The notes below the pieces were generated by a model. The model was given only the letters and a program-made list of their open reading frames with translations, was not told the DNA's origin and searched no databases. Below, piece after piece: positions 1-63,193 of a stretch of 64,000 nt of DNA; position 1 is the first letter of the stretch, and each line of letters starts with the position of its first letter. The stretch covers positions 47,802,001 through 47,866,000 of the forward strand of contig JANJGN010000003.1 of the NCBI GenBank assembly GCA_026770705.1, written 5' to 3'. Made by a program: the position numbers and the translations under genes. The DNA is from Isurus oxyrinchus. Lineage: Eukaryota.

Positions 1-190
1 TCCTCCCCTAAAGGACATCAGTGAACCAGTTGGATTTTTACAACAATCAACAATGGCTTTATGGTCATCATTAGACTTTTACTTCCAGATTTTTATTGAA
101 TTCAAATTCCACCATCTGCTGGGTCTGCAGGGCATTACCCTGGGTCTCTAGATCACTAGTCCAGCGGCAATACCATTATGTCATCGCCTT
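1..190 (-). mobile_element. HE1-like tRNA-derived SINE, 5' portion (runs off window start)
   Basis: Minus strand reads GGCGATGACATAATGGTATTG..GGACTAGTGATCTAGAGACCCAGGGTAATGC..GATGGTGGAATTTGAATTCAATAAAAATCTGG; collinear with the SINE at 57625-58256. Confidence 0.75.
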
Positions 191-378
191 GCCCCATCCA
201 GATATTTCTCCCCCTCCTTTATGTTGCACAGTGTCTGCAATTCAGCTTCCAGATCAATAATCCTGATCCAGAATTCCTCTCGCTGCTTACACTTTCTGCA
301 AACATGTTTGTCATGGATCACCTCGGCATCCAAAGGTTCCCATATTCCACAGCTGCAACATAACACCTGTCCCGCCAT
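190..378 (-). pseudogene. CR1 LINE ORF1 N-terminal fragment (zinc finger + coiled coil)
   Basis: MAGQVLCCSCGIWE..HVCRKCKQ..RIIDLEAELQTL: paired CxxC followed by a heptad repeat, typical of CR1 ORF1; truncated by the SINE. Confidence 0.7.
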
Positions 379-4946: not shown

Positions 4947-5125
4947 ACATATTAGTAAAATAATTTTGCTTTGGCTCTACGCAGAGAACAATATACCTTT
5001 AACTTTCTTCAATGGTTTGATTTTTACTTAGGCTACATTTTACTCAAAATGATTCAAGTAGATTCAATCACCAAAAAGGTATCACTTAGTTTATGCCCAC
5101 CTACACAATCACAAACACACAGACG

Positions 5126-6454
5126 GGGCAGAATTTTCTGCTTGACCTTTGGGGGGGCGGGCCCCGCACATCAGCGCGTAAAATGACTCACGGTGATGTC
5201 GGGTGAGTGTCCCGATGTCACCGCGCACCATCACGATATTTCACTGGGCGGGTGTGCGATGAAGTTTGATGCGTGCTCGCCATTAACTAATGGGCTAGTT
5301 AAGCCCCTTAATTCACCAATTGACAGTGATTTTCAGGCGCCCATGCAATTTTTGGGTCGGTGCACAGGTGCAACGGGCAGGCGGGTAAGAGACCTTTTAA
5401 TTAACCTCATCCACAGGCGGGATAAGAGGGCTTAGTGGGGTTGTGAATCTGGTCTGTGAAGTATTTATTGGAGTAAGTTTTTAAACTTGCCTGCGTGATC
5501 TACAGCAGCTTAGAATGAATGCCAGCAGCTTTCTGTGTACTTTGAACCTTCAGCTCAGCACTCTGCAGTCAGGAATCTTTATCGGGCCTGCAGCTTTCCG
5601 GAGGCCTCCCTTTGGCCTGGGTATGGGTTCTGACATGTCCGCTGGAGGCAGTTTCTCTGAGGAAGAAGGGATGGCTAGAATAAGGAGAAGGCCAGGAGTC
5701 CACATTCAGCCTCCAGGGGAGCCAGTTTTGAGAGCACAGGCGCAGACACAAGGGGTGCAGAGCCAAAAGGTTGTCCAAGGTGGAAGGGGTCACAGACGAC
5801 GCCACTATCCTGCTGCCAGAGTATATAGTCATCAAAGCAGCTACCTCAATATGACTGAGGTGCCGTGCCGAAGGAGGCTCCGACCGTCAAGGGAGACAGT
5901 CAACTACATCTGGCAGATGATTGACCCTGAGATCTCTCCTAACTGTGTGGGTGGACACCCCATGCCAATAGCTCTAAAGGTCACAGCTGCTCTCAACTTC
6001 TATGCCTCTGGCTCCTGGGTTGGTGGTTGTGGGGGGTGGGGGGGGTGAGAGTAAGGGGGTCAGCAGCAAGGGCAGGGGTTGGCTCTCAGTGGGTCTCTCC
6101 TCACTTCCCGATGCTGGGTCTCTCAGTCAGGAGCTGAGTTCCTTTGAGCAAGGGACTCCCAAGATGCCCACAAGCAACTCTGACAGAGTTTGCTTTTCGG
6201 GCTTCCCGCACGGTGAGTCCTCTTGGCCCGCCACTGGATGAATACCAGCGGTAGCATGATGAGGCTCTTCAGTGGGCATTTATGGACTTCAATTGGCGGT
6301 GGGGTGGGAAGGCTGTCCACGAGCCTTCCTGGACGTAATAGGGGCAGAGTCGGGAAAGTGGCAAGATCCCCACTCACCACCGTCTTGCCCGATTAAATGA
6401 GGTGCTCCCACCGGCCAACAAACTCAGCTTGAGGAAGGGCCTAAAATTTTGCTC
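5126..6454 (+). mobile_element. Internally deleted PIF/Harbinger element (family A)
   Basis: TIRs GGGCAGAATTTT ... AAAATTTTGCTC; flanks ACG/ACA; retains the transposase 5' part. Confidence 0.8.
5623..6015 (+). pseudogene. Harbinger transposase N-terminal remnant
   Basis: HYPAARVYSHQSSYLNMTEVPCRRRLRPSRETV..GGHPMPIALKVTAALNFYASGS, collinear with the 34114-35349 protein; stops before the catalytic core. Confidence 0.85.
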
Positions 6455-12160: not shown

Positions 12161-13756
12161 AAACTGAAAGGCCTGAAGGTGGATAAATCACTGGACCAGA
12201 TGGATTACACCCCAGAGTTCTGAGGGAGATAGCTGAAGAGATAGTGGCGGCGTTAGTGGTGATCTTCCAGGAATCACTGGAGTCAGGAAGGTCTCAGAGG
12301 ACTGGTAAAACGCTAATGTAACCCTCCTGTTTAAGAAGGGAGTGAGGCAAAAGACGGGAAATTACAGGCCAATTAGCCTGACCTCGGTCGTTGGTAAGAT
12401 TTTAGAGTCCATTATTAAGGATGAGATTTCAGAATACTTGAAAGTGCATGGTAAAATAGGGCAAAGTCAGCATGGTTTCATCAAGGGGAGGTCATACCTG
12501 ACAAATCTGTTAGAATTCTTTGAGGAGGTAACAAGTAGGTTAGACAAAGGAGAGACAATGGATGTTATCTACTTGGACTTCCAGAAGGCCATTGACAAGG
12601 TGCCGCACAGGAGGTTGCTCAGTAAGATAAGAGCCCATGGCGTTAGAGGCAAGGTGCTAGCATGGATAGAAGATTGGCTGTCTGGCAGGAGGCAGAGAGT
12701 GAGGATAAGGGGGTCCTTCTCAGGATGGCAGCTGGTGACTAGTGGAGTTCCGCAGGGGTCAGTGTTGGGACCACAACTTTTCACTTTATACATTAATGAT
12801 CTAGATGAAGGAACTGAGGGCATTCTGGCTAAGTTTGCAGATGATACAAAGATAGGTGGAGGGACAGGTAGTATTGAGGAGGCGGGGAGGCTGCAGAAGG
12901 AATTAGACAGGTTAGGAGAATGGGCAAAGAAGGGGCGGGTGGAATACAACGTGGGCAAGTGTGAGGTCATGCACTTTGGTAGGAAGAATAGAGGCATAGA
13001 CTATTTTATAAATGGGGAGAGAATTCAGAAATCTGGAGTGCAAAGGGACTTGGGAGTCCTAGTCCAGGATTCTCTTAAGATTAACTTGCAGGTTGAGTTG
13101 GTAGTTAGGAAGGCAAATGCAATGTTGGCATTAATTTCGAGAGGACTAGAATATAAAAGCAGGGATGTGCTGCTGAGGCTTTATAAGGCTCTGGTCAGAC
13201 CACATTTAGAATATTGTGAGCAATTTTGGGCCCTGTATCTCAGGAAGGATGTGCTGGCCCTGGACAGGGTCCAGAGGAGGTTCATGAGAATGATCCCAGG
13301 AATGAAAGGCTTAACATATGAGGAATGTTTGAGGACTCTGGATCTATACTTGATGGAGTTTAGAAGGATGAGGGGGGATCTGATTGAAACTTACAGAATA
13401 CTAAAAGGCCTGGATGGAGTGGATGTGGGGAAGATGTTTCCATTAGTAGGAGAGACTAGGACCCAAGGGCATAGCTTCAGAGTAAAGGGAATACCTTTTA
13501 GAACAGAGATGAGGAGAAATTTCTTTAGCCAGAGAGTGGTGAATCTACGGAATTCAATGCCACATAAGGCTGTGGAGGCCAGGTCATTGACTGTATTTAA
13601 GACCGAGATAGATAGGTTCTTGATTGGTAAGGGGATCAAAGGTTATGGAGAGAAGGCGGGAGAATGGGGTTGAGAAACTTATCAGCCATGATTGAATGGC
13701 AGAGCAGAATCGATGGGCCGAATGGCCTAATTTCTGCTCCTATGTCTTATGGTCTT
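12161..13756 (+). mobile_element. Young 5'-truncated CR1 LINE
   Basis: ATGGA duplicated at 12156-12160 and 13757-13761; (TCTTATG)n tail. Confidence 0.92.
12342..13673 (+). pseudogene. CR1 ORF2 reverse transcriptase domain + C-terminus (open 443 codons, no endonuclease)
   Basis: NYRPISLTS, QHGF, YLDFQKAIDKV, SGVPQGSVLGP, KFADD motifs; copy is 5'-truncated so not autonomous. Confidence 0.93.
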
Positions 13757-25409: not shown

Positions 25410-28179
25410 GTTCCGGCATTCCACCGCCCAGCAACACCACCCCCTCCAAGTCACTTGAGGTGCAGGTGGAGGCAGAAAGTGCCCAGGGCACTGCAGTCGG
25501 AGACCAGGACACTGCTGAGTCTAAGGCAGGTGAAGAGCCTCTAGAGTTGTCCATTAGGCAGCAGATGCTGGATGTCCAGCACAATGTGCAGGAGGATCTG
25601 GTGGAGATCCATGACGTTCTACGTGCCATGCTCTCTGTTGTGGAGGTGTGCCTGTGGAGCGTGAGCACTGCGTTGACCTTTATGGCCAAGCACACTGCTT
25701 CCGCCATTGAGAGAGTGGTGACCCTCATGGAGATGCAGCTCCAGGGACAGAATCAGGGGTTCCTGGAGTTGTACTCAGACCTGCAAGTGTGGGAGATGGA
25801 TCAGGCACCCAGTATCCCATCTAGGTGCCCACCTAATAATGATGAGCAGGGAGGTCTAGAGTGATCTCACGTTGGTGCACAAGCAACTTGTCATCTCTGC
25901 GGGTTCCTCTCAGGTGCTCTGGATGATGGCAGCAGCTCCTCCGCCCCTCTGCCAGTGTCCTAATGAGGCTGCGATGACTGGGGAGATGCCAGCTGTGGCA
26001 CTGGCCACTCCCTCCCAGATGGAGCCAGCACAACAGCAGAGTCAGCAGGCTGCCCCCAATGCCATTACCAGTGAGGGACACTAAGATGCAGCACTCATAA
26101 ACGTAAATTTTAGGCACCATGAACACAAGAGGGGCGAGGGGCTGTTCATGGGCAATCTTCTGTTCTGTAATGTCTTGTTTACTGGTGTGGAAATGAACAC
26201 CAGAGATGGTAATGTTAATTTGTTTTGAGTGTGAAAATTATATAAATTTTGCTTTTGTTGTAATGGTCTGAGTATGCTTCACTTTTTTTTTGGTGCAGGG
26301 TACGCCAGTATGTAATGCTAGATGTGAGTATCCCTAAACTTTATTGCACAGGCACTGAGTGGGCTTTGGGTTCAATAGAAGGGTCATTTCAGACATCCTG
26401 GATGGAGGTGGCACCCCTGGCATGAGGTGGAAGCAGTTCTTTGGCAGCCTAGCTGAAGGAGTGTTGGGTCAAAATGTCCTTGGTTTCCCTGCCTCCCTGA
26501 AGGTTATTGAGGTCTGGATCCATGCTCCTCACTGTGCTCCTCTTCTAACTCACTACTGGACTCATCCTCTGTGGCCTGTGCAGCTGCCTCAAGAATCTCC
26601 AGTGGGTCCCCCTTGCCAGTGCCAGATTGTGGAGATCGCAGCATTCAACCACTATCAGTGACACCCCCTCTGGGGGCTATTGTAGTGCACCCCCTGAATG
26701 GTCCAGCATCAGGAGCACATCTTCAGAAGACCTATGGTCATCTCTATCACTGCCCTTGTGGAGGCATGACTCCTATTATAATGCTGCTCTGCCTCTGTTC
26801 TTGGGTGGCAGAGAGGTGTCTTAAGCCACCTTTTCAACAGATAGGCCCTGTCACCCAGTAGCCATCCATCCAGTCGGGCTGGAGCACTGAATAGCCTCAG
26901 CACCTGGGAGTGTCTGAGGATATAAGTGTCATGGAAGTTGTCAGGGTACCTTGCACAGACTTGCAGAATCAGCATCCTGTGGTCACACATTATCTGCACG
27001 TTCATTGACTGGAAGCCCTTCCCGTTACGAAAGCACCTGGCTGACCCGCTGGTGCCTTAATGGCCACATGTGTGCTGTCGATTGCACCCTGGATGCGGGG
27101 GAACCCAGCAATCGCTGCAAACTCTCTGGCTCACTCAGCCTGGCTCACTCAGCCTGGCTGGCCAGTCTGTGCGGAAATGAATAAATGTCATTACCTGACT
27201 GAACAGAGCACCAATCACCAGCTTGACAGCTGACTGGGAGACTCCACACAGATGACCCCACTGACCTCTGAAAAGAGCCATAGGCATACAAGTTGAGGGC
27301 TACAGTGACCTTTAGAGCCACTGACATGGGGTGTCCACCCACACAGTTGGAGGTGATCTCAGACCCAATCATCTGGCACATGGAGGCCACAGTCTCCCTG
27401 GAGAGGCAGAGCCTCCTTTGGGCATTGACCTCGAACATATTGAGGTAGCTGCATCGCCGCCTGTAAACCCTGGCACCAGGATAGTGGCGTCTTCTGCTGC
27501 CCCTTCCATCTTGGATTATCTGCTGGCCATTTGCCCCTTGTGCCTGCATCTCTCCTCCCACATGTTGCTCCCCTGGAAGCTGCATTGGGACACCTGGTGT
27601 CCTCTCCCCTTCTGACCCTCTCTTCCACAGAGGAGGAGGTGCCTCCAGCAGAGAGCACAATCCCCATTACCAAGGTTACAGAAAGCTGTCTGATACCTGG
27701 AAGGGTCCACACGGTCAAATCCTCCGGGAGCCTTGGAGACACCAATGAGTCCTGAAATGAAGCCAAGAAATGCTACGTATGAAGCTCAAAATTGAGATGA
27801 AGCTGTCGAGTTCCAATATCCAACCAGCAGCAAACTATCTCCCAAACCCCTCACTATTCACAATGGCAATGCTGCTGACCCTTTTTATCCTGCCCTTGGA
27901 TGAGGTTTTTGCAAACAGTGGGCTGCCCGTCTGCCCGTTTTGCCTGTGCGATGAGCACAAAATCGTGTGGCAACCTAAAATCGGGATCAATTGGATGTTT
28001 AATGGCCTTAAGTGGCCTTTTAATTGATGGCGGGCACAGCTCTGACACCTGCGTGCCCACCTACCTGAAAATTGCACATGTGCGGGAAGACACTGGGACG
28101 CTCGCCCGACATCATCTTGGGTGATTTGATGCCCAGTCAGGTCGGGCACGTGCTCCCTGTGAGGTGTAAAATTCTGCCC
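25410..28179 (-). mobile_element. Harbinger family A copy, one end missing
   Basis: Collinear with 32930-35841; ends AAAATTCTGCCC. Confidence 0.85.
26440..27668 (-). pseudogene. Harbinger transposase pseudogene, family A
   Basis: MNVQIMCDHRMLILQVCARYPDNFHD..WLLGDRAY..TRAVIEMTIGLLKM; several frameshifts. Confidence 0.9.
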
Positions 28180-29528
28180 TATGATTCTGAGAACACGTGC
28201 AGACTCTTAATTACACAAGTTAAATTTGCTGAAATCCTAAGAATGATAGTTTGAACTTCATTGGATGTTTTATAATGAGTCATTCTTTTGCAAGTTTATC
28301 AATATCTCCGTCTTTTCTTCCTATGGGCATGACTGCACCATGCCGCATACATGGTTGAGGGGATGGAATTTCAATCCACATCGCAGGCTTCTACCTGCAG
28401 GAGATGTGCAAGAATAGCCTGAGGTGATTTCTTCTCCGATTTCTTTTCTTGAGAAGTACTTGACACAGCTGAGATTGGGAATTCTGGACTTCAAGAATTA
28501 TAGGCATCAATCCATCTAATGCACAGTTATGTTGAACTTCACTTTGTCACTCATTACATTTAAACTTGCTGTGCTTCCTTGCACCTTAGACATAACAGAC
28601 CATAAGATGTTAAAAAAGGAAAGCTTTATGACATAATTGGCTTCGCAACAATGGACACCTTGTTATAGCATTAATAGCTTAGCAACAGCTTGCAGAGTAG
28701 ACTGGCACTAAGCCAGCTCTTAACCAAACAAGCTACATCTGCTCATAGATACAACAGGAATCAGCAACATTGCTGACTTCCCTTCATGCTGCTTTGACTG
28801 CTGTAAGCAAATCAGAAGCCAGTACAACATGTCAGTCTCTACCATACCCAGTCCTTGCCTTATCTTAGCTAAATTGGTGATAAATTCATGGTAATTCCAT
28901 GTCTGGCCTCCACAGAATCACATAATTGTTATGGCACAGAAGGATGCCATTCGGTCCATTGTGTCTGCACCAGCTCCCCGAGCATTTTAACTGGGTGCCA
29001 ATCACCTGTCTTTTCCCCTGTAACCCTGCACATTGTTTCTATTTAAATAATCATCCAATACCCTCTTGAATGCCTCAGTTGAACCTGCCTCCACCACATT
29101 TCCAGACAGTGCATTCCTAACTACTCGCTGTTTGAAAATATTTTTTCTCAACATGCATTTGCTTCTTTTGGAAAACACTTTAAAACTGTGCCCTCTGGTT
29201 CTCGATCCATTCATGAGCAGGAACAGCTTCTCCCGATCTACTCTGTCCAGGCCCCTCATGATTTTGAAAACTTTTATCAAGTTTCCTCTTAGCCTTCTCC
29301 TCTCCAAGGAAAACAGTCCCAACTTCTCCAATCTTTCCTCATAACTGAAGTGTCTCATCCCTGGAACCATTCTCATAAACCTCTTCTGCAGACTTTCCAA
29401 TGCATTCACATCCTTCCTATAGTGCGGCGCCCAGAACTGTACACAATACTCCAGCTGAGGATTGACTAGTAACCTATAAAAGTTCATCAAAACTTCCCTG
29501 CTCCTGTACTCTATGCCCTATTAGTGAA

Positions 29529-30689
29529 GGTGTGGCTATGAGTACCCACATGGGCCCCAGTTATGCCTGTCTCTTTATGGGGTATGTGGAACATTTCTTG
29601 TTCCAGTCCTACTCAGGTCCCCTCCCACAACTCTTTCTTTGGCACATTGATGACTGTTTCAGTGCCACATCTGCACCTGGAAAAATTTTTCAATTTTGCT
29701 TCCAATTTCCACCCCTCCATCACCTTCACATGGTCCATCTCTGACACTTCGCTTCACTTCCTTGACCTCTCTGTTTCAATTTCTGATTATAGGTTGTCCA
29801 CCAATATTCACTACAAGTCCACTGACTCCCACAGCTACCTCGACTACAGCTCCTCACACCCTACTTCCTGTAAGGACTCCATCCCATTCTCTCAGTTGCT
29901 TCGTCTCCATTGCATCTGTTCTGATGATGTCACTTTCCAAAACGGCGCTTCTGACATGTCTTCCTTCTTCCTTAACCGAGGTTTCCCATCCACTGTGGTT
30001 GACAGGGCCCTCAACTGTGTCCGACTCATCTCCCGCGCCTCTGCCCTCACACATTCCTCTCCCTCCCAGAACCATGATAGGGTCCCCCTTGTCCTCATTT
30101 TTCACCCCACCAGCCTCCGCATTCAAAGGATCATCATCCACCATTTCCGCCAAATGCAGCATGATGCCACCATCAAACATATCTTCCCTGCACCCCTCCT
30201 GTCAGCATTCCGTACGGGACACGCTGGTCCACTCCTCCATCACCCCCAATACCTCATTCCCCCTCCCATGGCACCTTCTCATGCAATTGTAGAAGGTGCA
30301 ACACCTGCCCCTTTACCTCTTCCCTCTTTACCGCCCAAAGGCCCAAACACTCCTTTCAGCTGAAGCAGCACTTCATTTGCACCTCCTTCAATTTGGTCTA
30401 CTGTGTTCGCTGCTCCCAATGTGGTTTCCTCTACATTGGAAAGACCAAATGCAGACTGGGTGACTGCTTTGTGGAACACCTTCGGTCTGTCAGCAAGCAT
30501 GACCCAGACCTTCCTGTTGCTTACCATTTCAACACATCATCCTGCTCTCGTGCCCACATGTCCACCCTTGGTCTGCTGCAATGTTCCAGTGAAGCTCAAC
30601 GCAAACTGGAGGAGCAGCACCTCATCTTCCGATTAGGCACTTTACAACCTTCCGTACTTAACTTTGAGTTCAACAACTTCAGACCATGA
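29529..30689 (+). pseudogene. PLE reverse transcriptase C-terminus + Zn-finger linker + GIY-YIG endonuclease (frameshifted)
   Basis: GVAMSTHMGPSYACLFMG, WHIDD, FLDLSV, CNCRRCNTC linker, LVYCVRCSQCGFLYIGKTKCRL..EH..LEEQHLIFRLGTLQPSVLN. Confidence 0.9.
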
Positions 30690-31147
30690 ACTCGCTCCTC
30701 CATCCTCACCCCTTCTTTTATCCCCTTTTTTTAATATTCATTTTCATTTTTATTTTTTATCCACTTATTTTTATTTTTATTTATTTATTTTCATTTTTAT
30801 TCACTGTTTCGTCCCCACCTTTTATCCTATTTTCAATCTTTTTTCCCACCTCCCCCCACCCCACTCCCACAAGGACCATCTGTCACTTGTTCATGTTGCT
30901 CTTTCCAGAGTGCCTACCCTTGTCCTGCCATTATCACATTCTGCTTTCTGACCTTAATGCCACCATCAGCACCTCCATTATCCAGTATCACTATCATTGA
31001 CACCCCCTTGTCCTTTTGTCTATGACATCTCTGGCAATCTCTCCTTTGCCTCCACCTATCACTGGCCTATCCAGTTTCACCTGCTCCACCCCGCACCCCC
31101 CCCCCCCCCCTTAAACAGTATAAATTTCATCACATTTTTACCACGTT

Positions 31148-31190
31148 TTTGCTCTGAAGAAGAGTCATATGGACCTGAAATGTTACGTCT
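31148..31190 (+). ncRNA. Degenerate minimal hammerhead-ribozyme motif in the PLE 3' repeat
   Basis: CTGAAGA (31154-31160), stem II AGAGTC/GACCT, GAAA (31177-31180), TGTT; expected position for PLE hammerheads. Confidence 0.5.
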
Positions 31191-32848
31191 TTTTTTTTTC
31201 TCTCCACTGTTGCTGTTAGACCTGCTGATTTTTTCCAGCATTTTCTGTTTTTGTTTCAGGTTTCCAGCATCCGCAGTATTTTGCTTTTACCCCCTATTAA
31301 TGAAACCTATAATACTGTATGTTTTAGAAACAGCTTTCTCTACCTGTCCTGCCACCTTTAATGGACTTATGTACATATACACCCAGGTGTCTCTGCTCCT
31401 GCACACCCTTCAGAATAGTATCCTTTGTTTTATACTGTCTCTCCATGTTCTTTGTACCAAAGTGTATCATCTTACACTTCTCTGCATTGACCTTCATCTG
31501 TCACCTATCTACCCTCTTCACCAGTGTGTCAATGTCCTTTTGAAGTTCTACACTGCCCTCACAGTTAACAATTCTCCTAAGTTTTGTGTCGCACGCAAAC
31601 TTTGAAATTATCTCCTGCACACCAAGATCTAGATCCTTTATATATATCAGGAAAAGCAAGGGCCCCAATGCCGACCCCTGTGGAACTCCACTACAAACCT
31701 TCTTCCTGCTTGAAAAATACCCATTAACTATTACTCTCTGTTTCCTATCCCTCAGCCAATTTTGTATCCACGTTGGTACTGTCCCTTTTATTCCATGACA
31801 TATAACTTTCCTCAAGTCTGTTGTGTGGCACTGTATCAAACACCTTTTGGAAGTCCATATACACCACATCAACTGCCTTGCCCTCATCAACCATTGCTGT
31901 TACCTCTTCAATAAACTCCAGCAAGTTACTGAGATGCTGATGTCACTTAATGCAGCCATCACCCTTTCCCCTCAGCCCCACCCCCACCCCCCCTCTCTGA
32001 GTACAGTAACAGCATTGAATCCTTCACAGCTTGTATCCCTCGATGGGTGTGCCAGTAGATATTGCCCATGCCTAGTTCACCCTGAGAGGGTTGAGCTGGG
32101 ATGTGTTCTGCATCCGCAGCATGTGTGACACTGACACCCAGAGTATAGAATGGGGTTGAAAGTCAAGGATCTGCACCTAGGCAGAGTGCTGGAACTGGGA
32201 AGCCTGTCGAAGTCATGCTGGCAGGGGAGCTTCCAGTTGGCGGGGCACCAATTCATCTGCTGGTCTTTTTGCTCCACGTGCTTGTGCCTCCTTGCTTAGC
32301 AAAGGAACACCTTGCAGTGCCACATGTGAAGGAGGCAGCATTTGGGCAATGGAGGGCGTCAGCTCTGGCTTCTTTGTGTGAGTGTGCGGCAGCTGCAGGG
32401 TGATGAAGAACTGGAGTCCTGCAATGTCCCACTCTGGCTGGGTTGGCAGGGATGCGATGGGAATTCAGGTGCAGGCTGGACTAATCAATGTTCTCTCCTT
32501 TTCAGGAGAAGGCTGCGCACAATTCTGCAGAGTGGATATGGACTGTCTGAGGCCAGGCCCAGTTGGCGATCCTAACACCTTACAAGTTGTAGGCCATGGA
32601 TTTGGAGAGGCACCATGCCCCCAGGTGGCGGTGAGGCTGGAGTGCCACAGGAAGTATGTTTGGCAAGCACTCAGGTCGCCATGTGTGTCCCAGAAGCCAT
32701 GGCACTGCTGAATGCTCAGCGACTGAAGTTTGCAACATGGGTTGACCATTGATTATGGAAGGATGAGCACATAATGATCCGGGGAGCGGCATGCAAGTTG
32801 ACATTAGTAACAGGGCAGACAATCAAATGTCCTTTTTCTTTCTTTCAG

Positions 32849-34113: not shown

Positions 34114-35349
34114 CTAGCTGAAGGTTCTTTGGATTAAAGCATCCTGCATCTTCCTGCTTCCTTGGAGTATGCCCGGATCAGCATTTACCCCCTCAGCGTT
34201 CTCCTGTGTGTGCTCATCCTCGGACTCACTGCTGGACTCATTGTGTGCATCCGGAGAAACTGCGTCTACATCTTCCTCATCCACTGCATCGCCACTTTCC
34301 AGCGCCAGATTGTGGAGAGCACAGCCTGCAGCCACTATCAGCGACACACAGTCTGGGGGGTATCGTAGAGCATCCCCTGAGCAACCCAGGCATCGGAAGC
34401 ACATCTTGAGAAGAGCGATGGCTCGCTCCACCACAGCCCTTGTGAAGCCGTGGCTCCTACTGTACTGCTGCACAGCTTCTGTTCTTGGATGGCAGAGATG
34501 CATCATGAGCCACCTTCTGAGGGAATAGCCCTTGTCACCCAGCAGCCACCCATCCAGCCGGGCTGGAGCACTGAAGAGCCCCGGCACCTGGGAGTGTCTG
34601 AGTATGTAGACGTCATGGGAGCTGTCTGGGTACCTTGCACAGACTTGTAGAATCAGCATCCTGTGATCACACACTATCTGCACGTTCATGGAGTGGAAGC
34701 CCTTCCTGTTGACGAAGGCATCGGGCTCACCTGCTGGCACCTTGATGGCCACATGTGTACAGTCTATTGCACTCTGGACGTGGGGGAAGCCAGCAATGGC
34801 CATGAAGCCTCTGGCTCGCTGTATCTTACTTGCCTGGTCCCAGCGGTAGTGGATGAAAGTCAATGCCCGTCTGAACAGAGTGTCTGTGACCTGCTTGACA
34901 CAAATGTGGACAGCTGATTGGGAGGCTCCACAAAGATCACCCACTGACCCCTGGAACGAGCTAGAGACATAGAAGTTGAGGGCAGCTGTGGCCTTTAGAG
35001 CCATTGGCATGAGGTGCCCACCCACACAGTTTGCAGAGATCTCAGGGCCTATCATCTGACAGTTGGAGGTGACTGTCTCCCTTGAGAGACGGAGCCTCCT
35101 TCGGCACTGCATCTCAGACATATTGAGGTAGTTGCTTTGCCGTTTGTATGCCCTGGCATCAGGATAGTGGCATCTTCTGCGGCCCCTTCTGCTTTTGAAT
35201 TCCTGTTGGCCCTGTGCCCCTTGTGCCTGCACTTCTCCTCCCAAAGGTAGCTCCCCTGGAGGCTGAGTGTGGACTCCTGGCCTCCTTCCCCTTCTGGCCC
35301 TCCCTTCCTCCTCAGAGGAGGTGCCTCCAGTGGAGAACACAACTCCCAT
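34114..35349 (-). CDS. Harbinger DDE transposase (HARBI1-like), uninterrupted ORF, ~411 aa from ATG 35349
   Basis: ALNFYVSSSFQ HTH region, AIDCTHVAI, NRKGFHSMNVQ, SSHD, LLGDKGY, RAVVERAIALLK, CALHN; no stop or frameshift. Confidence 0.88.
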   Translation of the reverse strand: MGVVFSTGGTSSEEEGRARRGRRPGVHTQPPGELPLGGEVQAQGAQGQQEFKSRRGRRRCHYPDARAYKRQSNYLNMSEMQCRRRLRLSRETVTSNCQMIGPEISANCVGGHLMPMALKATAALNFYVSSSFQGSVGDLCGASQSAVHICVKQVTDTLFRRALTFIHYRWDQASKIQRARGFMAIAGFPHVQSAIDCTHVAIKVPAGEPDAFVNRKGFHSMNVQIVCDHRMLILQVCARYPDSSHDVYILRHSQVPGLFSAPARLDGWLLGDKGYSLRRWLMMHLCHPRTEAVQQYSRSHGFTRAVVERAIALLKMCFRCLGCSGDALRYPPDCVSLIVAAGCALHNLALESGDAVDEEDVDAVSPDAHNESSSESEDEHTQENAEGVNADPGILQGSRKMQDALIQRTFS

Positions 35350-36597
35350 TCCAAGGCTAAGTGAAGGCTTCCTGAAAGCTGCAGGTCCCAAAAATGATCT
35401 TTATTGTAGAGTCCTGACCAAGGCTTTTACTCCTGTCCAAGCAGCTGGTATGAGTTTTGAAGTATTCCTGCTCACACAGGCAAGTATAAGTAACTTTCAC
35501 ACTTAAATACCTGAAAGAGCACATTCGCGACCCCACTCGCCCCACTTATGCCGCCCGTGAATGAGACATTATATGAATGTCTCCTACCCGCCTGCCTATT
35601 GCACCCGTGCGACATCCTGAAGATCGCACGGGCTGCGAAAAATCATATTCAATTTCTGCCTCAAGGGCCTTAACTGGCCCATTAATCAATGGTGGGAGGA
35701 CATCCAAACTCATAGCGCATCCGCCTTCCGAAATATGATGGTGCACGGTGACATCGGGACGCACGCCTGATGTCACTGCGCGTCACTTTACATGTCGGCG
35801 TGCGGGTCCCGCCCCCACATGACAACGGGGAAATTCTGCCCCTAGTTCCTTTAGGATGAAGAGAATTGCCTAACATGAATGGTTTACCTAACTGTTCCAG
35901 ATATACAGTAATATCATGCTCAAACTCTGACTAAAAAATCTCCAAACCTTATTCTTGGTTTATTTTATTAAATCTGTTTTAAAAAGCTCAGGAATAAAGA
36001 TAGGAAGAAAATACTGACTCGTATAAATTATCTCTTTTAAATTAAGTAACTAAAGGTGCTAAGTCTATTTCGGCTGCCCAATATTCATCAGATACAATAT
36101 GAGGGTACCTATTGACTCACAAGTATGATTGGCAATGCAGCAACATCTCTATTTTAACAAGGGCACGAGAGGGTTATTATGAGCGCAAGTAAAGAGGCAA
36201 GGCCCTATCCCAGAGGGAAGAGTTGAAATCTTGGAGACTATGCCCCCTTTGGCCAGATGTGAGCACCTTCCTAGTGATTGGTTGCAGAGTAACATGTTGG
36301 AAGTATGAGATTAAACCAAGACGTGCAAAACAAGAAATGATATCTAGATGATATTAATTGTAACATTTTGAACCAGAGACCACCTCTGGTGAAAGGGATT
36401 CCTTCCTTAAAATTAACTAGACAAACACAGATGTAAGATAATTAGAAATGCTTTCACCTCTCATATAAATCTGTAACCTTAGCTAAGGCTGAAAGAATTT
36501 TAATTGTAATTTAATAGCGAAGTTTAATGTAATCGTCAAGCAATTACTTATGATAATTGGAACTACATGCCTGATAATACTTAGGGGCCCTGTATAT

Positions 36598-42002: not shown

Positions 42003-44480
42003 TGTTCTGTGGTTGGTGTCAAGGTGGGGGGGGGGGGGGGGGGGTTGGTTTAGGGATTATCTATTCTCCCAAAGTATGCTGCTTGAGTCTGCAATTTCTC
42101 AAAACCATTACTATTTATTTACAGAATATTTATACATTTGGACTTCTACACGTTATTAAAGATTTTCCTCCTTCCAGGTCTCTCTTACCTCTCAGTCACA
42201 TGATCAGACATCAGTACTACATCAGCATCATGTACTCTACAGGACATGTTGCCAAAGATGTTGCTTCAATTAATCCTCAAATATTTCTGTCTGTTTCACA
42301 GCATTTAGCCAATGCTTTGTTGAATAGCTTCTGGAAAATTGTTCATAATGCTATTGCTTTCTGTGGCCATGCAATCCACAAAAAAATGGACCAAAGACAA
42401 AAATAACTATCCACCAATAAACAATTTTTAGATTAATGGAGTTGGGGCCATGGGGAAAAAGAACAATATGGCTAAAAATGTGCAGGAAATTAGTTTAATA
42501 CTTGAATTGGGATATATATTTACGGTTGTGATGTAAAATCTCACTGCTGCTTTATGCTTACTTTGTGTACCACCAGTTTGAGCTGTCACACATCAGATGT
42601 GACACTATTGCAATTAAAAACTCTTATGATTGGCTCTCAGGTAGTATACTGGGATTTCTCATGGGGCAAGGCCCAATGAAATGTGTACCCCCTTTGCCCG
42701 ATTGTAATATATAATAGATTTATCATATATATAAGTAGGAGCTGGAATTTAGATGAGTCTTATAAAAAGACAAACTTCCACGATTTAGTGTGCTTTACTA
42801 TTCAGGGTAGCCCAGCCATCTATTGTCCAACATACATTCCATCCTTCACGGTTGTGAAGTAAGGGCATGCAGGCATGATACAGCACAGGAAGACATGTCA
42901 TTTTGGGATAACTAGACGTTTTTAATTCATTATCTGTTTTTATATCAGATTTCCAGCATCTGCAGAGTTTTATTATTTATATTTGATGCTGTTACCTCGC
43001 ACAATAGCTATAGCTCACACAGCACCTAAAACCACATACTATAAATCGATAATTTCATTCATTACAGTTGAACATCAGTGTTACAAAATGTTCCCATTCA
43101 CTAGAGGAAATGTGTATATTTGAAGAATGCACACAGGAGGTTAGCATTTTGCTGTTCTTCGATAACCTTGAAAGGGTCTCTCCGGCCTCCTGATAGAAAA
43201 ATCCCAGTCTGTCCAAACAGAATGACGTGTGACAGAGTCCACATTGAAGCGGAGGTGGGACAGCCGCCTAGTATCAGCCTTATCAGTCCCAGAGTCTCAG
43301 TGATACAGCTGGGCTGGGAGGAATGGAATGCTTGCACACATTTATCAGCATTTACATATAAATGGCCCAAATCAGAGCAGGAGCCTTGGAGCTTAACCGA
43401 GAGTCTACATGTCAGGCAATGCTGTCAGTATTTGTTAAGGAGCAGATTGGGCTATCTGGTGAACATTTTCTGGCCTTGAGATTTGCATGTAAAGACTTGC
43501 AAAAAAAAGCCTCGGCTTTTAGATGGGAAACAAATTCCAACAAGTCAGAAAAGGGAGTAGACCCACTGGGTTTTTTGTAAAAAAATTACATACCAAATTA
43601 CCTGTGACAAGTAGTTATTCACAAATCAGTAGCCTCCTGTTCCAGCTCCAAAATCTAGGGTTTATCGAAGAGGAATGTTTATCTCTTGAATATTTCAATC
43701 AGAAAAGAATTAAGAGTTTCTTGCCTATTGTCATTTGAATAGCTTCATTCCATTATTCATGGCCAATAATGGTTACAATGATTACTTGCTTTGTGGTTTA
43801 CTATGCATTCACAAACAGTAGTTGAGCCTCTGAGGGCAAAAATGTCATTTTTTTTCAGATTGTTCTGTGGTTGGTGTCTAGGTGGGGCTTTTAGGGATTG
43901 TCTATTCTCCCAAAGTATGCTGCTCGAGTCTGTAGTTACTCAAAACCATTACTATTTATTTACAGCAAATATTTACACATTTGAACTTCTACACGAGATT
44001 AAAGATTCTCCTCCTTCCAGATCACGCTTACCTCTCAGTCATGTGATCGGACATCAGTATCTCTACAGGACATGTTGCCAAAGATGTTGCTTCAATTAAT
44101 CCTCAAATACTTCTGTCTGTGTCACAGCATTTAGCCAATGCTCTGTTGAATAGCCACTGGAAAATAGTTCGTAATGCTATTGCTTTCTGTGGCTTTGCAA
44201 TCCACATAGGAATGGACCAAAGACGGAAATAACTATCCACCAATAAACAATTTTTAGCTTAATGGAGTTGGGGCCATGGAGAAAAAGAACAATATGGCTA
44301 AAAAGGTACAGGAAAATTAGTTTAATACTAGAATTTGGATACATATTTATGGCTGTGATGTAAAATCTCACTGCTATTTAATGCTTACTTTGTGTACCAC
44401 CAGCCTGAGCTGTCACACATCAGATGTGACACTATTGCAATTAAAATCTCCTAGGACCAATGAAATGTGCACCCCCTTTT
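42003..44480 (+). repeat. Local direct duplication: 42003-~42695 repeated at 43862-~44480
   Basis: Collinear from TGTTCTGTGGTTGGTGTC through CAGGACATGTTGCCAAAGATG to CCAATGAAATGTG.ACCCCCTTT, with scattered substitutions and indels. Confidence 0.9.
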
Positions 44481-57261: not shown

Positions 57262-57622
57262 TTACATCAGTGACAGCACTCTTGCCTTTGAATCAGATGT
57301 TTGTGGGTTTGAGCCTCACCCCTGAAAGTTGAGTGCATGAACTTGCCTGATACCCCAGTCCAGTACTAAGGAACTATTGCACTGTCAAGAGGTGCCATCT
57401 TTCAGATAAGACATTAAACTGAAGTCCTATCTGCTCTCTCATGTATTCATAAAGGCTTTTGCTGTTCTGCATTTATCTTGCAGCTGACATCCATAACAAA
57501 TTACCTGGTCATTTATTTCATTACTGTTGTAGGACATTGCTGTATGTAAATTGGCTTCCATGTTTCCTATTGTATAGCAGAGGCTACACTTCAAAAGTAC
57601 TACAGTGGCTGTAAAGCTCTTT
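57262..57622 (+). mobile_element. DeuSINE (SacSINE1-like) copy
   Basis: tRNA-like head (CAGTGACAGCACTCTTGCC..GGGTTTGAGCC) then Deu-domain-like TGCACTGTCAAGAGGTGCCATCTTTCAGATAAGACATTAAAC. Confidence 0.7.
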
Positions 57623-57974
57623 TTTAAAAATTCATTCATGGGATGTTGTGCATCACTGGCTAGGCCAGGATTTATTGCCCATCCCTAATTGCCCTAGAGA
57701 ACTGAGGGGCTTGCTAGGCCATTTCAGCGGGTATTTAAGAGTCAACCACGTTGCTGTGGGCCTGGAGTCACATGTAAGCCAGACCAGGTAAGGACAGCAG
57801 ATGTCCTTCCCTAGGTGGCATTAGTGAACCAGATGGGTTTTTTAATGACAATTAACAATGGTCATTATTAGACTTTTAATTCCATATTTTGTATTGAATT
57901 CAAATTTCACCATCTATCAAGGTGGGATTTGAACCCAGGTCCCCAGGGCATTACCCTGGGTCTCTGGATTACCA

Positions 57975-58208
57975 AAACAAAAACAGAATTACCTGGAAAA
58001 ACTCAGCAGGTCTGGCAGCATCGGCGGAGAAGAAAAGAGTTGACGTTTCGAGTCCTCATGACCCTTCGACAGTTCTGTCGAAGGGTCATGAGGACTCGAA
58101 ACGTCAACTCTTTTCTTCTCCGCCGATGCTGCCAGACCTGCTGAGTTTTTCCAGGTAATTCTGTTTTTGTTTTGGATTTCCAGCATCCGCAGTTTTCTTT
58201 GTTTTCAA
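57975..58208. mobile_element. Penelope-derived palindromic mini-insertion
   Basis: Exact 13-bp TSD CTCTGGATTACCA (57962-57974, 58209-58221); perfect 101-bp arms 57972-58072 / 58075-58175; right arm homologous to the PLE 3' end 31154-31290. Confidence 0.92.
58071..58109 (+). ncRNA. Variant minimal type-I hammerhead ribozyme motif
   Basis: Stem I AGTT/AACT; core CTGTCGA; stem II GGGTC/GACTC with ATGAG loop; GAAA; palindromic ACGT; GTC cleavage triplet. Confidence 0.6.
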
Positions 58209-58584
58209 CTCTGGATTACCAGTCCAGTGACAACGCTACCACTCTGCCACCTCCCCATTGGATACAATGAGAGGGGCAAAACAAATTAATGCTTTTTTCC
58301 TTCCTTAACACCTCAATTAAAACAGCCACAAAGAACTTCATAGTACATTCACCAGCTGAGGAAAATGAGTTTCAAAGTCAGTAAAAATCACAACTGAAAT
58401 GCATAACTGTGCTTAGGAGTCCAAAAATCTACCGAGCACCACCTGCAAATGTTGCTATCCTTTAAAATTTGACTTAGTCAACTGTTCTCTATTGACTTTT
58501 CTTCATTCCAATGAGCTATCAATTCAAAATTTGACCCATCAGCCTCAGTAATTAAGTTTTAAGACCTCATCCTGCTAGAGCACG

Positions 58585-62757: not shown

Positions 62758-63193
62758 TTTTTTTTTTGATTCATTCACAGGATGTGGTCTTCACTGGCTG
62801 GGCCAGCATTTACCGCCCATCCCTAGTTGCCCTTGAGAAGGTGGTGGTGAGCTGCCTTCTTGAACTGCTGCAGTCCATGTGGTGTAGGTACACCCACGGT
62901 GCGGTTACAACAAAGTGTTGGATCACTGAGGCAGGACCCAGCCTGCCTCCACAATCCATCAACCTCCAAACTCTTTTGAAAATCATCCTGCCCCCATTTT
63001 CACTCACCACACGGACCAAAAAAATTTGACCCAGGAACTGTCTCCCTAACAGCACTGTCGGTATACCTGTGCCACATGGACAGCAGCGATTTAAGAAGGC
63101 AGCTCACCACCACCTTCTCAAGGGCAACTAGGGATGGGCAATAAATGCTGGCCCAGCCAACGATGCCCACATCCCGTGAATGAATAAAAAAAA
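62758..63193. repeat. Two HER1 3' tails in inverted orientation around a ~140-bp spacer
   Basis: 62758-62907 (minus) is the reverse-complement homolog of 63047-63193 (plus); poly-T and poly-A outer ends. Confidence 0.85.

Follow-up and report, generated by a model that had tools for sequence, protein, structure and literature searches.

Positions 57975-58208 of the stretch of Isurus oxyrinchus DNA analysed here (64,000 nucleotides; the window) hold a 234-bp insertion in which one segment of a Penelope-like element (PLE) terminal repeat (pLTR) is present twice, head to head, and is followed by a tail on one side only. The unit is genuine and represents a minimal form of an insertion type already known for PLEs, and a single copy of it is an expected kind of PLE insertion. 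The reading we favour, at a probability of about 0.5, is a single integration by a Neptune-type PLE, with a cDNA of ~138 nt that was short because reverse transcription reached the RNA 5′ end and ran off it. The insert and its borders comprise the following features.

57962-57974, plus strand: left target site duplication (TSD), 13 bp, whose final CCA is also part of the mirrored sequence, from repeat search and pairing analysis.
57975-58072, minus strand: inverted partial pLTR, 98 bp, without tail, ending at the complement of hammerhead C3.
58071-58074, plus strand: apex, AG plus the TT loop; AGTT forms the 5′ side of helix I in the hammerhead and is the proposed RNA 5′ end.
58075-58172, plus strand: direct partial pLTR (right arm), 98 bp, with ~75% identity to a PLE 3′ end from 31154.
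58173-58208, plus strand: PLE tail, 36 nt, on one side only, its 3′ end in register with that of a sister PLE.
58209-58221, plus strand: right TSD, 13 bp, identical to the left copy.

A first-pass annotation had described two arms (57972-58072 and 58075-58175) as perfect reverse complements of 101 bp each around a TT loop, and these coordinates are exact; the runner-up among perfect inverted repeats with a loop of ≤10 nt in the whole 64 kb has arms of only 15 bp. The exact 13-bp TSD that it reported, CTCTGGATTACCA, is also present, with copies at 57962 and 58209. These are its two plus-strand occurrences in the window (minus strand, 0), and the chance of such a match is ~7e-6 with 400 boundary pairs allowed. 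The unit between them is the 234-bp insert that had been proposed. The arm extent is adjusted here: the mirror does span 101 bp, but its outermost 3 bp (CCA, 57972-57974) belong to the TSD, so the arms within the insert measure 98 bp. This CCA, common to TSD and mirror, is a junction microhomology. The insert is composed of the 98-bp inverted arm, TT, the 98-bp direct arm, and the one-sided tail, a unique extension of 36 nt (58173-58208), or 33 nt if the CCA is counted as arm. At the apex, AG (58071-58072) can be assigned either to the end of the inverted arm or to the start of the direct copy, and may represent a 2-nt microhomology, as judged from helix I pairing rather than from the parent sequence. 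An RT-endonuclease ORF is absent from the 234 bp, and the unit is therefore not an autonomous PLE.

The insertion lies inside a SINE, first annotated as HE1-like, a family name that stands here as a candidate; of the traits of HE1 (tRNA-derived head, V-domain, HER1-derived tail), the tRNA-type boxes of the head were found.

57620-58256, minus strand: host tRNA-derived SINE (ends approximate), with A box at 58239-58249 and B box at 57926-57935.

Minus-strand A and B boxes mark it as tRNA-derived, and the insert sits between the two. The 3′ end of the SINE (57620-57701) is common to LINE tails elsewhere in the window; several shark SINE families are tabulated in PMC3747384. When the insert and one TSD copy are removed, what remains aligns colinearly, junction included, with a SINE paralogue at window positions 1-197. 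The TSD is target-derived, because this empty site is colinear with the paralogue, and the colinear empty site and the TSD together therefore mark a true insertion rather than a read fold-back. Fold-back reads can produce perfect palindromes, and the locus was judged from assembled sequence rather than from raw reads; a sequencing or assembly artefact is nonetheless most improbable, given unique flanks in which the host SINE resumes colinearly to left and right, an exact 13-bp TSD, a one-sided tail that fits PLE biology, and a neighbouring PLE with a TSD of equal length.

With respect to the host, the insert (within 57926-58249) interrupts an anticodon-arm-like stem of the SINE tRNA head, and residual Pol III or read-through transcription of the SINE would yield long double-stranded RNA. 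The target (57965-57974 plus 58222) and the tail boundary of the element (58173-58183) have 10 of 11 bases the same, on the same strand; the window contains eight such tail-boundary-like sites, counted on both strands and with the element and its TSD included. The tail-like target could reflect an endonuclease preference for tail-like DNA, although the sister TSD shows no such likeness.

Homology of the right arm and tail to a PLE 3′ end, the next element of the original description, holds at 75.8% over 128 nt (31153-31280), and 103 of 137 ungapped columns are identical between the unit and this sister 3′ end. Two further PLE sequences lie in the window.

29516-29528, plus strand: left TSD of the sister PLE, 13 bp, with one mismatch to the right copy at 31292-31304.
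29529-31291, plus strand: sister PLE, Neptune-type, 5′-truncated and frameshifted, with RT thumb, Cys linker (30282-30308), and GIY-YIG.
42932-42971, plus strand: short, decayed piece of this pLTR end, keeping ~15 nt of arm and the greater part of the tail.

The sister sits in a minus-strand LINE fragment and has no inverted arm. TSD length is 13 bp in both PLE insertions of the window that have a detectable TSD, and their 3′ ends are in register. A direct copy of the neighbouring element (29529-31291) was considered as the origin of the unit and ruled out, the divergence being too high (~75% identity); on this comparison, the sister represents a related subfamily and not the donor. The remnant at 42932-42971 shows no inverted arm and no convincing TSD, only a weak AT-rich 8-bp candidate.

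Pfam matched none of the window's own three PLE fragments, and their identity rests on homologues. Translated pieces of the sister match proteins of whale shark, zebra shark, stingray, and devil ray at 58-65% (near-full-length matches), which marks the window as elasmobranch. In a domain scan of three relatives, GIY-YIG was matched in all three and RT in two; P0002, a relative of the sister, has both RVT_1 and GIY-YIG matches. The sister linker, CNCRRCNTC (30282-30308), is a CX4CxxC ahead of the endonuclease, and a CX2-5CxxC linker between RT and GIY-YIG is described as the mark of Neptune/Nematis (PMC8557442). The unit, itself without a coding part, would thus derive from an elasmobranch Neptune-type subfamily, a clade assignment made through the 75% pLTR identity.

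Several observations concern the relatives themselves. The tail boundary of the sister (31248-31277) is splice-acceptor-like, with a pyrimidine run followed by CAG, and the unit (58163-58192) has TGG at this point. In the zebra-shark protein P0008 (Stegostoma tigrinum LOC125456532), residues 390-522, the C-terminus corresponds to 3′ UTR read-through into the hammerhead; P0008 is a PLE, and the annotated protein is thus probably a mis-annotated repeat. P0007 is named as a chitinase-domain protein, yet matches PLE.

The arrangement of the unit follows that of known inverted-pLTR insertions. An inverted, 5′-truncated copy by the 5′ end and a one-sided tail of 30-40 bp are standard for PLEs (PMC8557442), the tail being described also in PMC11167929. 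The first-pass annotation had pointed to this layout, and inverted pLTR, pLTR, 30-40 bp tail, TSD, and palindromic junction are all present; its reading as an extremely truncated PLE insertion is likewise supported, with the PLE layout retained and the body reduced to zero. PLE copies in Adineta carry inverted pLTR, tail, and a 9-10 bp TSD, with palindromes at the inverted junction that were read as self-priming (PMC3846280), and opposite-strand hammerhead pairs occur 100-700 bp apart in Schistosoma (PMC4209133). Head-to-head pLTRs and a one-sided tail are found both in the unit and in canonical EN+ PLE insertions (Pen2a_Av and Pen2 of Adineta vaga; Penelope of D. virilis). The unit differs in its TSD (13 bp, against 9-10 bp in Adineta) and in having no ORF or body, the insert being two arms and a tail. 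Its apex, moreover, falls both on the 5′ boundary of the hammerhead and on the start predicted from a TATA box, a connection that we did not find stated in the portions of the literature on canonical PLEs that were covered.

Other classes of element resemble the unit in part. Being short and non-coding, with a long inverted repeat and a TSD, it is similar to a MITE, a foldback DNA transposon, or a miRNA hairpin; a MITE or miRNA precursor was rejected, as the sequence derives from a PLE pLTR, the tail makes the two ends unequal, and the miRNA matches in Rfam are weak and far sub-threshold. L1 twin priming and small-hairpin duplications likewise leave an inverted 5′ segment inside the TSD, with the second target end priming or annealing via microhomology. 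Twin priming of L1 inverts a non-overlapping part of one RNA, whereas in the unit the same segment has been copied twice; the enzyme class also differs. Non-LTR retrozymes (bioRxiv 10.64898/2026.07.22.740005) are, like the unit, non-coding, pLTR-derived, equipped with a type I hammerhead, and recorded in a chondrichthyan, but as described there they form head-to-tail tandems with at least two same-strand ribozymes, whereas the unit is head-to-head, with ribozymes on opposite strands and a non-canonical core. A retrozyme was rejected on the absence of a tandem array at the locus and the opposite strands of its ribozymes.

The absence of mismatches between the arms had been taken to imply a very recent event, which is overstated: it bounds the age only at ~10-19 million generations. 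Across 111 compared sites, at the published shark mutation rate of 7e-10 per base and generation (PMC10587355), the 95% upper limit is ~19 million generations, falling to ~11 million if CpG sites decay 10-fold faster. Identity of the arms is a by-product of how they were copied, both from a single template at the time of insertion. The event postdates both the host SINE and the sister PLE. No second copy of the unit was found within the 64-kb window. The 70-aa frame across the apex has no relatives of near length in a set of 5.8 billion proteins and none among 1.84 billion representative proteins, while the longer proteins of the former set gave 13 candidates, none scoring; all three are weak searches, the repeat being non-coding. 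Two DNA patterns of the unit had 0 matches in bacterial and archaeal genomes, as expected for a shark repeat.

These data bear on the suggestion that the 234-bp palindrome is one member of a separate, non-autonomous family of hairpins, which would be transcribed in their own right and depend on PLE proteins for mobilisation in trans. Non-autonomous PLE derivatives do exist, including the retrozymes (bioRxiv 10.64898/2026.07.22.740005) and MRC1 of Chlamys (PMC8557442); pLTR-driven mobilisation in trans is described in Adineta (PMC3846280), and the unit retains the tail that the enzyme reportedly needs (PMC11167929). However, the inverted arm stands in place of the TATA region, and the RNA would be one hairpin of near 100 bp (-195 kcal/mol) that reverse transcriptase would have to traverse. 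The left end matches target-specific homology, which argues that this end was set at the insertion site, and perfect arms are expected anyway if the mirror arises at insertion. With 64 kb lacking a second copy as well, such a family is decidedly unlikely. The unit has no TATA box, and a transcript of its full length would enclose the ribozyme within a single long hairpin; because it lacks a TATA box and its ribozyme is locked in this way, the unit is most likely a dead-end product, with the palindrome rebuilt at each insertion rather than inherited.

The apex adjoins a hammerhead-like sequence, with the following parts.

58071-58109, plus strand: minimal type I hammerhead, core CUGUCGA (A6U) at 58075-58081, by comparison with the consensus in PMC4209133.
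58083-58097, plus strand: helix II.
58098-58101, plus strand: GAAA.
58106-58109, plus strand: 3′ strand of helix I.

That a hammerhead core adjoins the fold-back, as annotated, is correct (C3 is 58075), but this core is non-canonical (A6U) and scores below all Rfam gathering thresholds. Helix I (AGUU/AACU) has 4 bp on the plus strand and 0 bp on the minus strand, and predicted cleavage falls after 58105, 31 nt from the apex. The minimal-hammerhead features present are a helix I within the usual 4-5 bp, an extra base before helix II, G10.1-C11.1, GAAA, a palindromic minimal helix III, and NUH. The core departs from CUGANGA, reading CUGUCGA with U for A at position 6, and A6 is kept in all 44 minimal-hammerhead rows examined in the Cervera supplement (PMC4209133); given A6U, ribozyme activity predicted for the unit is doubtful. 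Rfam returned 0 matches at gathering score in the whole window and, within 57600-58400, 19 sub-threshold matches with no hammerhead among them; these matches were rejected as reflecting pairing only. A strict hammerhead pattern did not detect the degenerate ribozyme of the sister. When folded by themselves, neither the right arm nor the sister end exceeded shuffles in stability (z -1.1 to +0.9) or adopted a hammerhead fold, which is expected for dimer-type minimal ribozymes.

The first-pass annotation had further proposed that the ribozyme dictates where reverse transcription turns around. In favour of such a role for the hammerhead fold or its cleavage, the direct copy begins exactly at the 5′ strand of helix I, and a protein-assisted hammerhead fold is reported for PAc, the Poseidon element of Anolis carolinensis (PMC11167929), so that a boundary footprint is conceivable. 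Cleavage, however, would end the RNA after 58105; a cleavage-defined apex was rejected because the predicted cut lies 31 nt away. Reverse transcriptase copies RNA from 3′ to 5′ and reaches the apex last, by which point the whole hammerhead would have been unwound, and ribozyme structure is thus an unlikely cause of the turn. The core, in addition, is A6U, and in vitro, with purified protein, PLE hammerhead mutants leave insertion and product size unchanged (PMC11167929). The proposal is not supported in this form, and a turn-around point set by the hammerhead is very improbable.

The favoured reading instead takes the apex to be the RNA 5′ end, with the cDNA running off there, a proposition that we regard as evenly poised. 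It draws on a promoter element in the sister.

31119-31125, plus strand: TATA box (TATAAAT) of the sister pLTR, 35 nt before C3 (31154).

The alignment of the unit with the sister pLTR is gap-free from the apex through the ribozyme, and the sister TATAAAT also lies 31 nt before the base aligned to 58071. A TATAWAW 29-33 nt upstream is found at 0.2% of window positions and at 0.8% within the sister 3′ UTR. P0008 holds the sole hammerhead-compatible stretch among 42,372 positions in 29 fetched proteins (0/300 shuffles), and its codons allow a TATAWAW 34 nt before C3 (14/3000 shuffles; 2/357 offsets compatible in the region); being a degenerate back-translation, this is compatible with a TATA box and not proof of one. 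TATA-to-start spacing is 30-31 nt in mouse (PMC1779604), and with the TATA box 34-35 nt before C3, the predicted start therefore falls 3-5 nt before C3. The direct copy starts 2-4 nt before C3, depending on how AG 58071-58072 is assigned, and helix I pairing suggests that the template carried AG before TT. This evidence comes from two relatives rather than from the parent pLTR of the unit, and the idea is post hoc and concerns one locus. Against an RNA start at the apex, the D. virilis Penelope promoter, the sole experimentally mapped PLE promoter, is TATA-less, with its start at nt 371 and an intron at 416-491 (PMC2377424). The 3′ end of this intron maps to helix I, and the start is thus ~120 nt before the hammerhead (PMC2377424, PMC4209133). 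Against a fixed apex, inverted repeats are said to "vary in size" among D. virilis copies (PMC2377424).

The apex could alternatively be another fixed RNA boundary or a pre-existing pLTR feature, whether a 3′ splice site or a self-priming palindrome as in Arkhipova's model. The D. virilis intron does end at the 5′ end of helix I (PMC4209133), and palindromes of 18 and 38 bp are present at Adineta pLTR 5′ ends, for which self-priming was proposed (PMC3846280). A spliced RNA, however, runs on into exon 1 and has no end at this point, and the sister pLTR possesses neither an AG acceptor nor a palindrome at the equivalent position; the pLTRs compared do not include the unit's parent. We consider such a boundary quite improbable.

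Under the favoured reading, insertion would have proceeded in four steps. The TATA promoter of the pLTR would start the RNA ~4 nt before C3, at the AGUU of helix I. The GIY-YIG endonuclease then makes staggered nicks 13 nt apart, as the TSD shows. Next, judging from in vitro results with a different PLE, the nick in the bottom strand would prime internally, at the end of the tail nearest the RNA 5′ end, to give a product of tail, arm, and AGTT. Finally, the same segment would be copied again in the opposite direction by one of two routes. In route (a), the top-strand nick would prime on a second RNA at the tail boundary, helped by three terminal and five further base pairs, and the two cDNA ends would be joined via AG/CT microhomology. 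In route (b), the first cDNA would snap back on a 2-bp match and copy itself until the target overhang annealed at the tail boundary. Both routes fit one copy with TT, as snap-back requires a TT loop and two-primer joining allows TT or AA.

The work on PAc (PMC11167929) resembles this model in several respects. Purified Anolis PLE protein nicks and extends both strands, it starts internally at two sites bracketing the tail, and products become shorter when the RNA 5′ end is shortened. Its tail sites are similarly placed, ~110-120 nt after the start of helix II, compared with +90/+93 and +126 in the unit. PAc is of the Poseidon clade, whereas the sister here has a Neptune-type linker. No characterised palindromic product was noted in PMC11167929. 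The in vitro start sites of PAc are, as described there, non-homologous to the cut DNA, whereas the left junction of the unit is homology-rich, pairing at 8/11. This junction is the best pairing site for the target 3′ end on the 138-nt template (three terminal pairs, 8/11). Random 13-mers from the window equal such pairing at the left junction in 11 of 20,000 cases and anywhere in 1,372 of 20,000; at a tail-sized offset of 28-42 nt, 206 of 20,000 random targets do so. The sister TSD reaches at best 6/11 on the template, and has nothing comparable.

The same junctions can be read as an ordinary, random 5′ truncation after which the end of the cDNA snapped back, the apex then lying beside the hammerhead by chance. 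PLE insertions are heavily 5′-truncated, often with an adjacent inverted truncated copy (PMC8557442), and the other two pLTR-type ends of the window are truncated elsewhere (29529; ~42932). Fold-back aligns both arms automatically and predicts the observed TT loop on the tail-bearing strand; inverted duplications self-annealed over 2 bp are described at L1 sites (bioRxiv 10.1101/2024.12.14.628481), and a left junction rich in homology accords with annealing between the target overhang and copied DNA. Random truncation, however, requires the break to fall within ~2 nt of the start predicted from the TATA boxes of two relatives, and the copy-back must also stop at the tail-sized offset that so few random targets offer. 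We judge it unlikely.

Repeats other than PLEs also lie in the window. A 428-aa frame at 34114-35400 (minus strand) contains a DDE_Tnp_4 (Harbinger-type) transposase domain (E 5.6e-31) and has several decayed relatives, with related pieces near 5125-6014 and 26525-27678. At 12309-13673 (plus strand), a LINE reverse-transcriptase frame (RVT_1) runs uninterrupted for 454 aa, and many LINE fragments, of at least two families, lie elsewhere. An 87% inverted repeat with its halves 139 nt apart (62761-62907 and 63047-63193) consists of two opposed LINE 3′ ends and is not PLE-related.

Neither a body-less pLTR palindrome nor an inverted junction marking a transcription start was found in the literature searched, most subscription papers and Repbase reports lying outside its scope, and this silence is weak evidence of novelty. 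The origin of the tandem and inverted terminal repeats of PLEs is stated to be unresolved (PMC8557442, PMC11167929); a body-less insertion reduces the problem of repeat formation to three junctions legible at base resolution. For annotators, PLE palindromes may be mislabelled as MITEs or miRNA hairpins. If the apex is a transcription start, palindrome counts in one shark assembly could discriminate, without bench work, between run-off and random truncation and between two-primer and snap-back synthesis.

More generally, it is possible, at somewhat less than even odds, that in elasmobranch Neptune-type pLTRs a TATA box directs transcription to begin at the first hammerhead strand, and that 5′-proximal internal priming then yields run-off cDNAs of fixed length. 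Were this the case, the genome should hold many body-less palindromes with a common apex, and the ratio of TT to AA loops among them would separate two-primer synthesis from snap-back. From such palindromes, the RNA 5′ end and both reverse transcription start sites could be mapped as they occur naturally in vivo. The inverted pLTR of full-length copies would then be explained as well, with one nick priming at the 3′ tail and the other at the 5′ tail.
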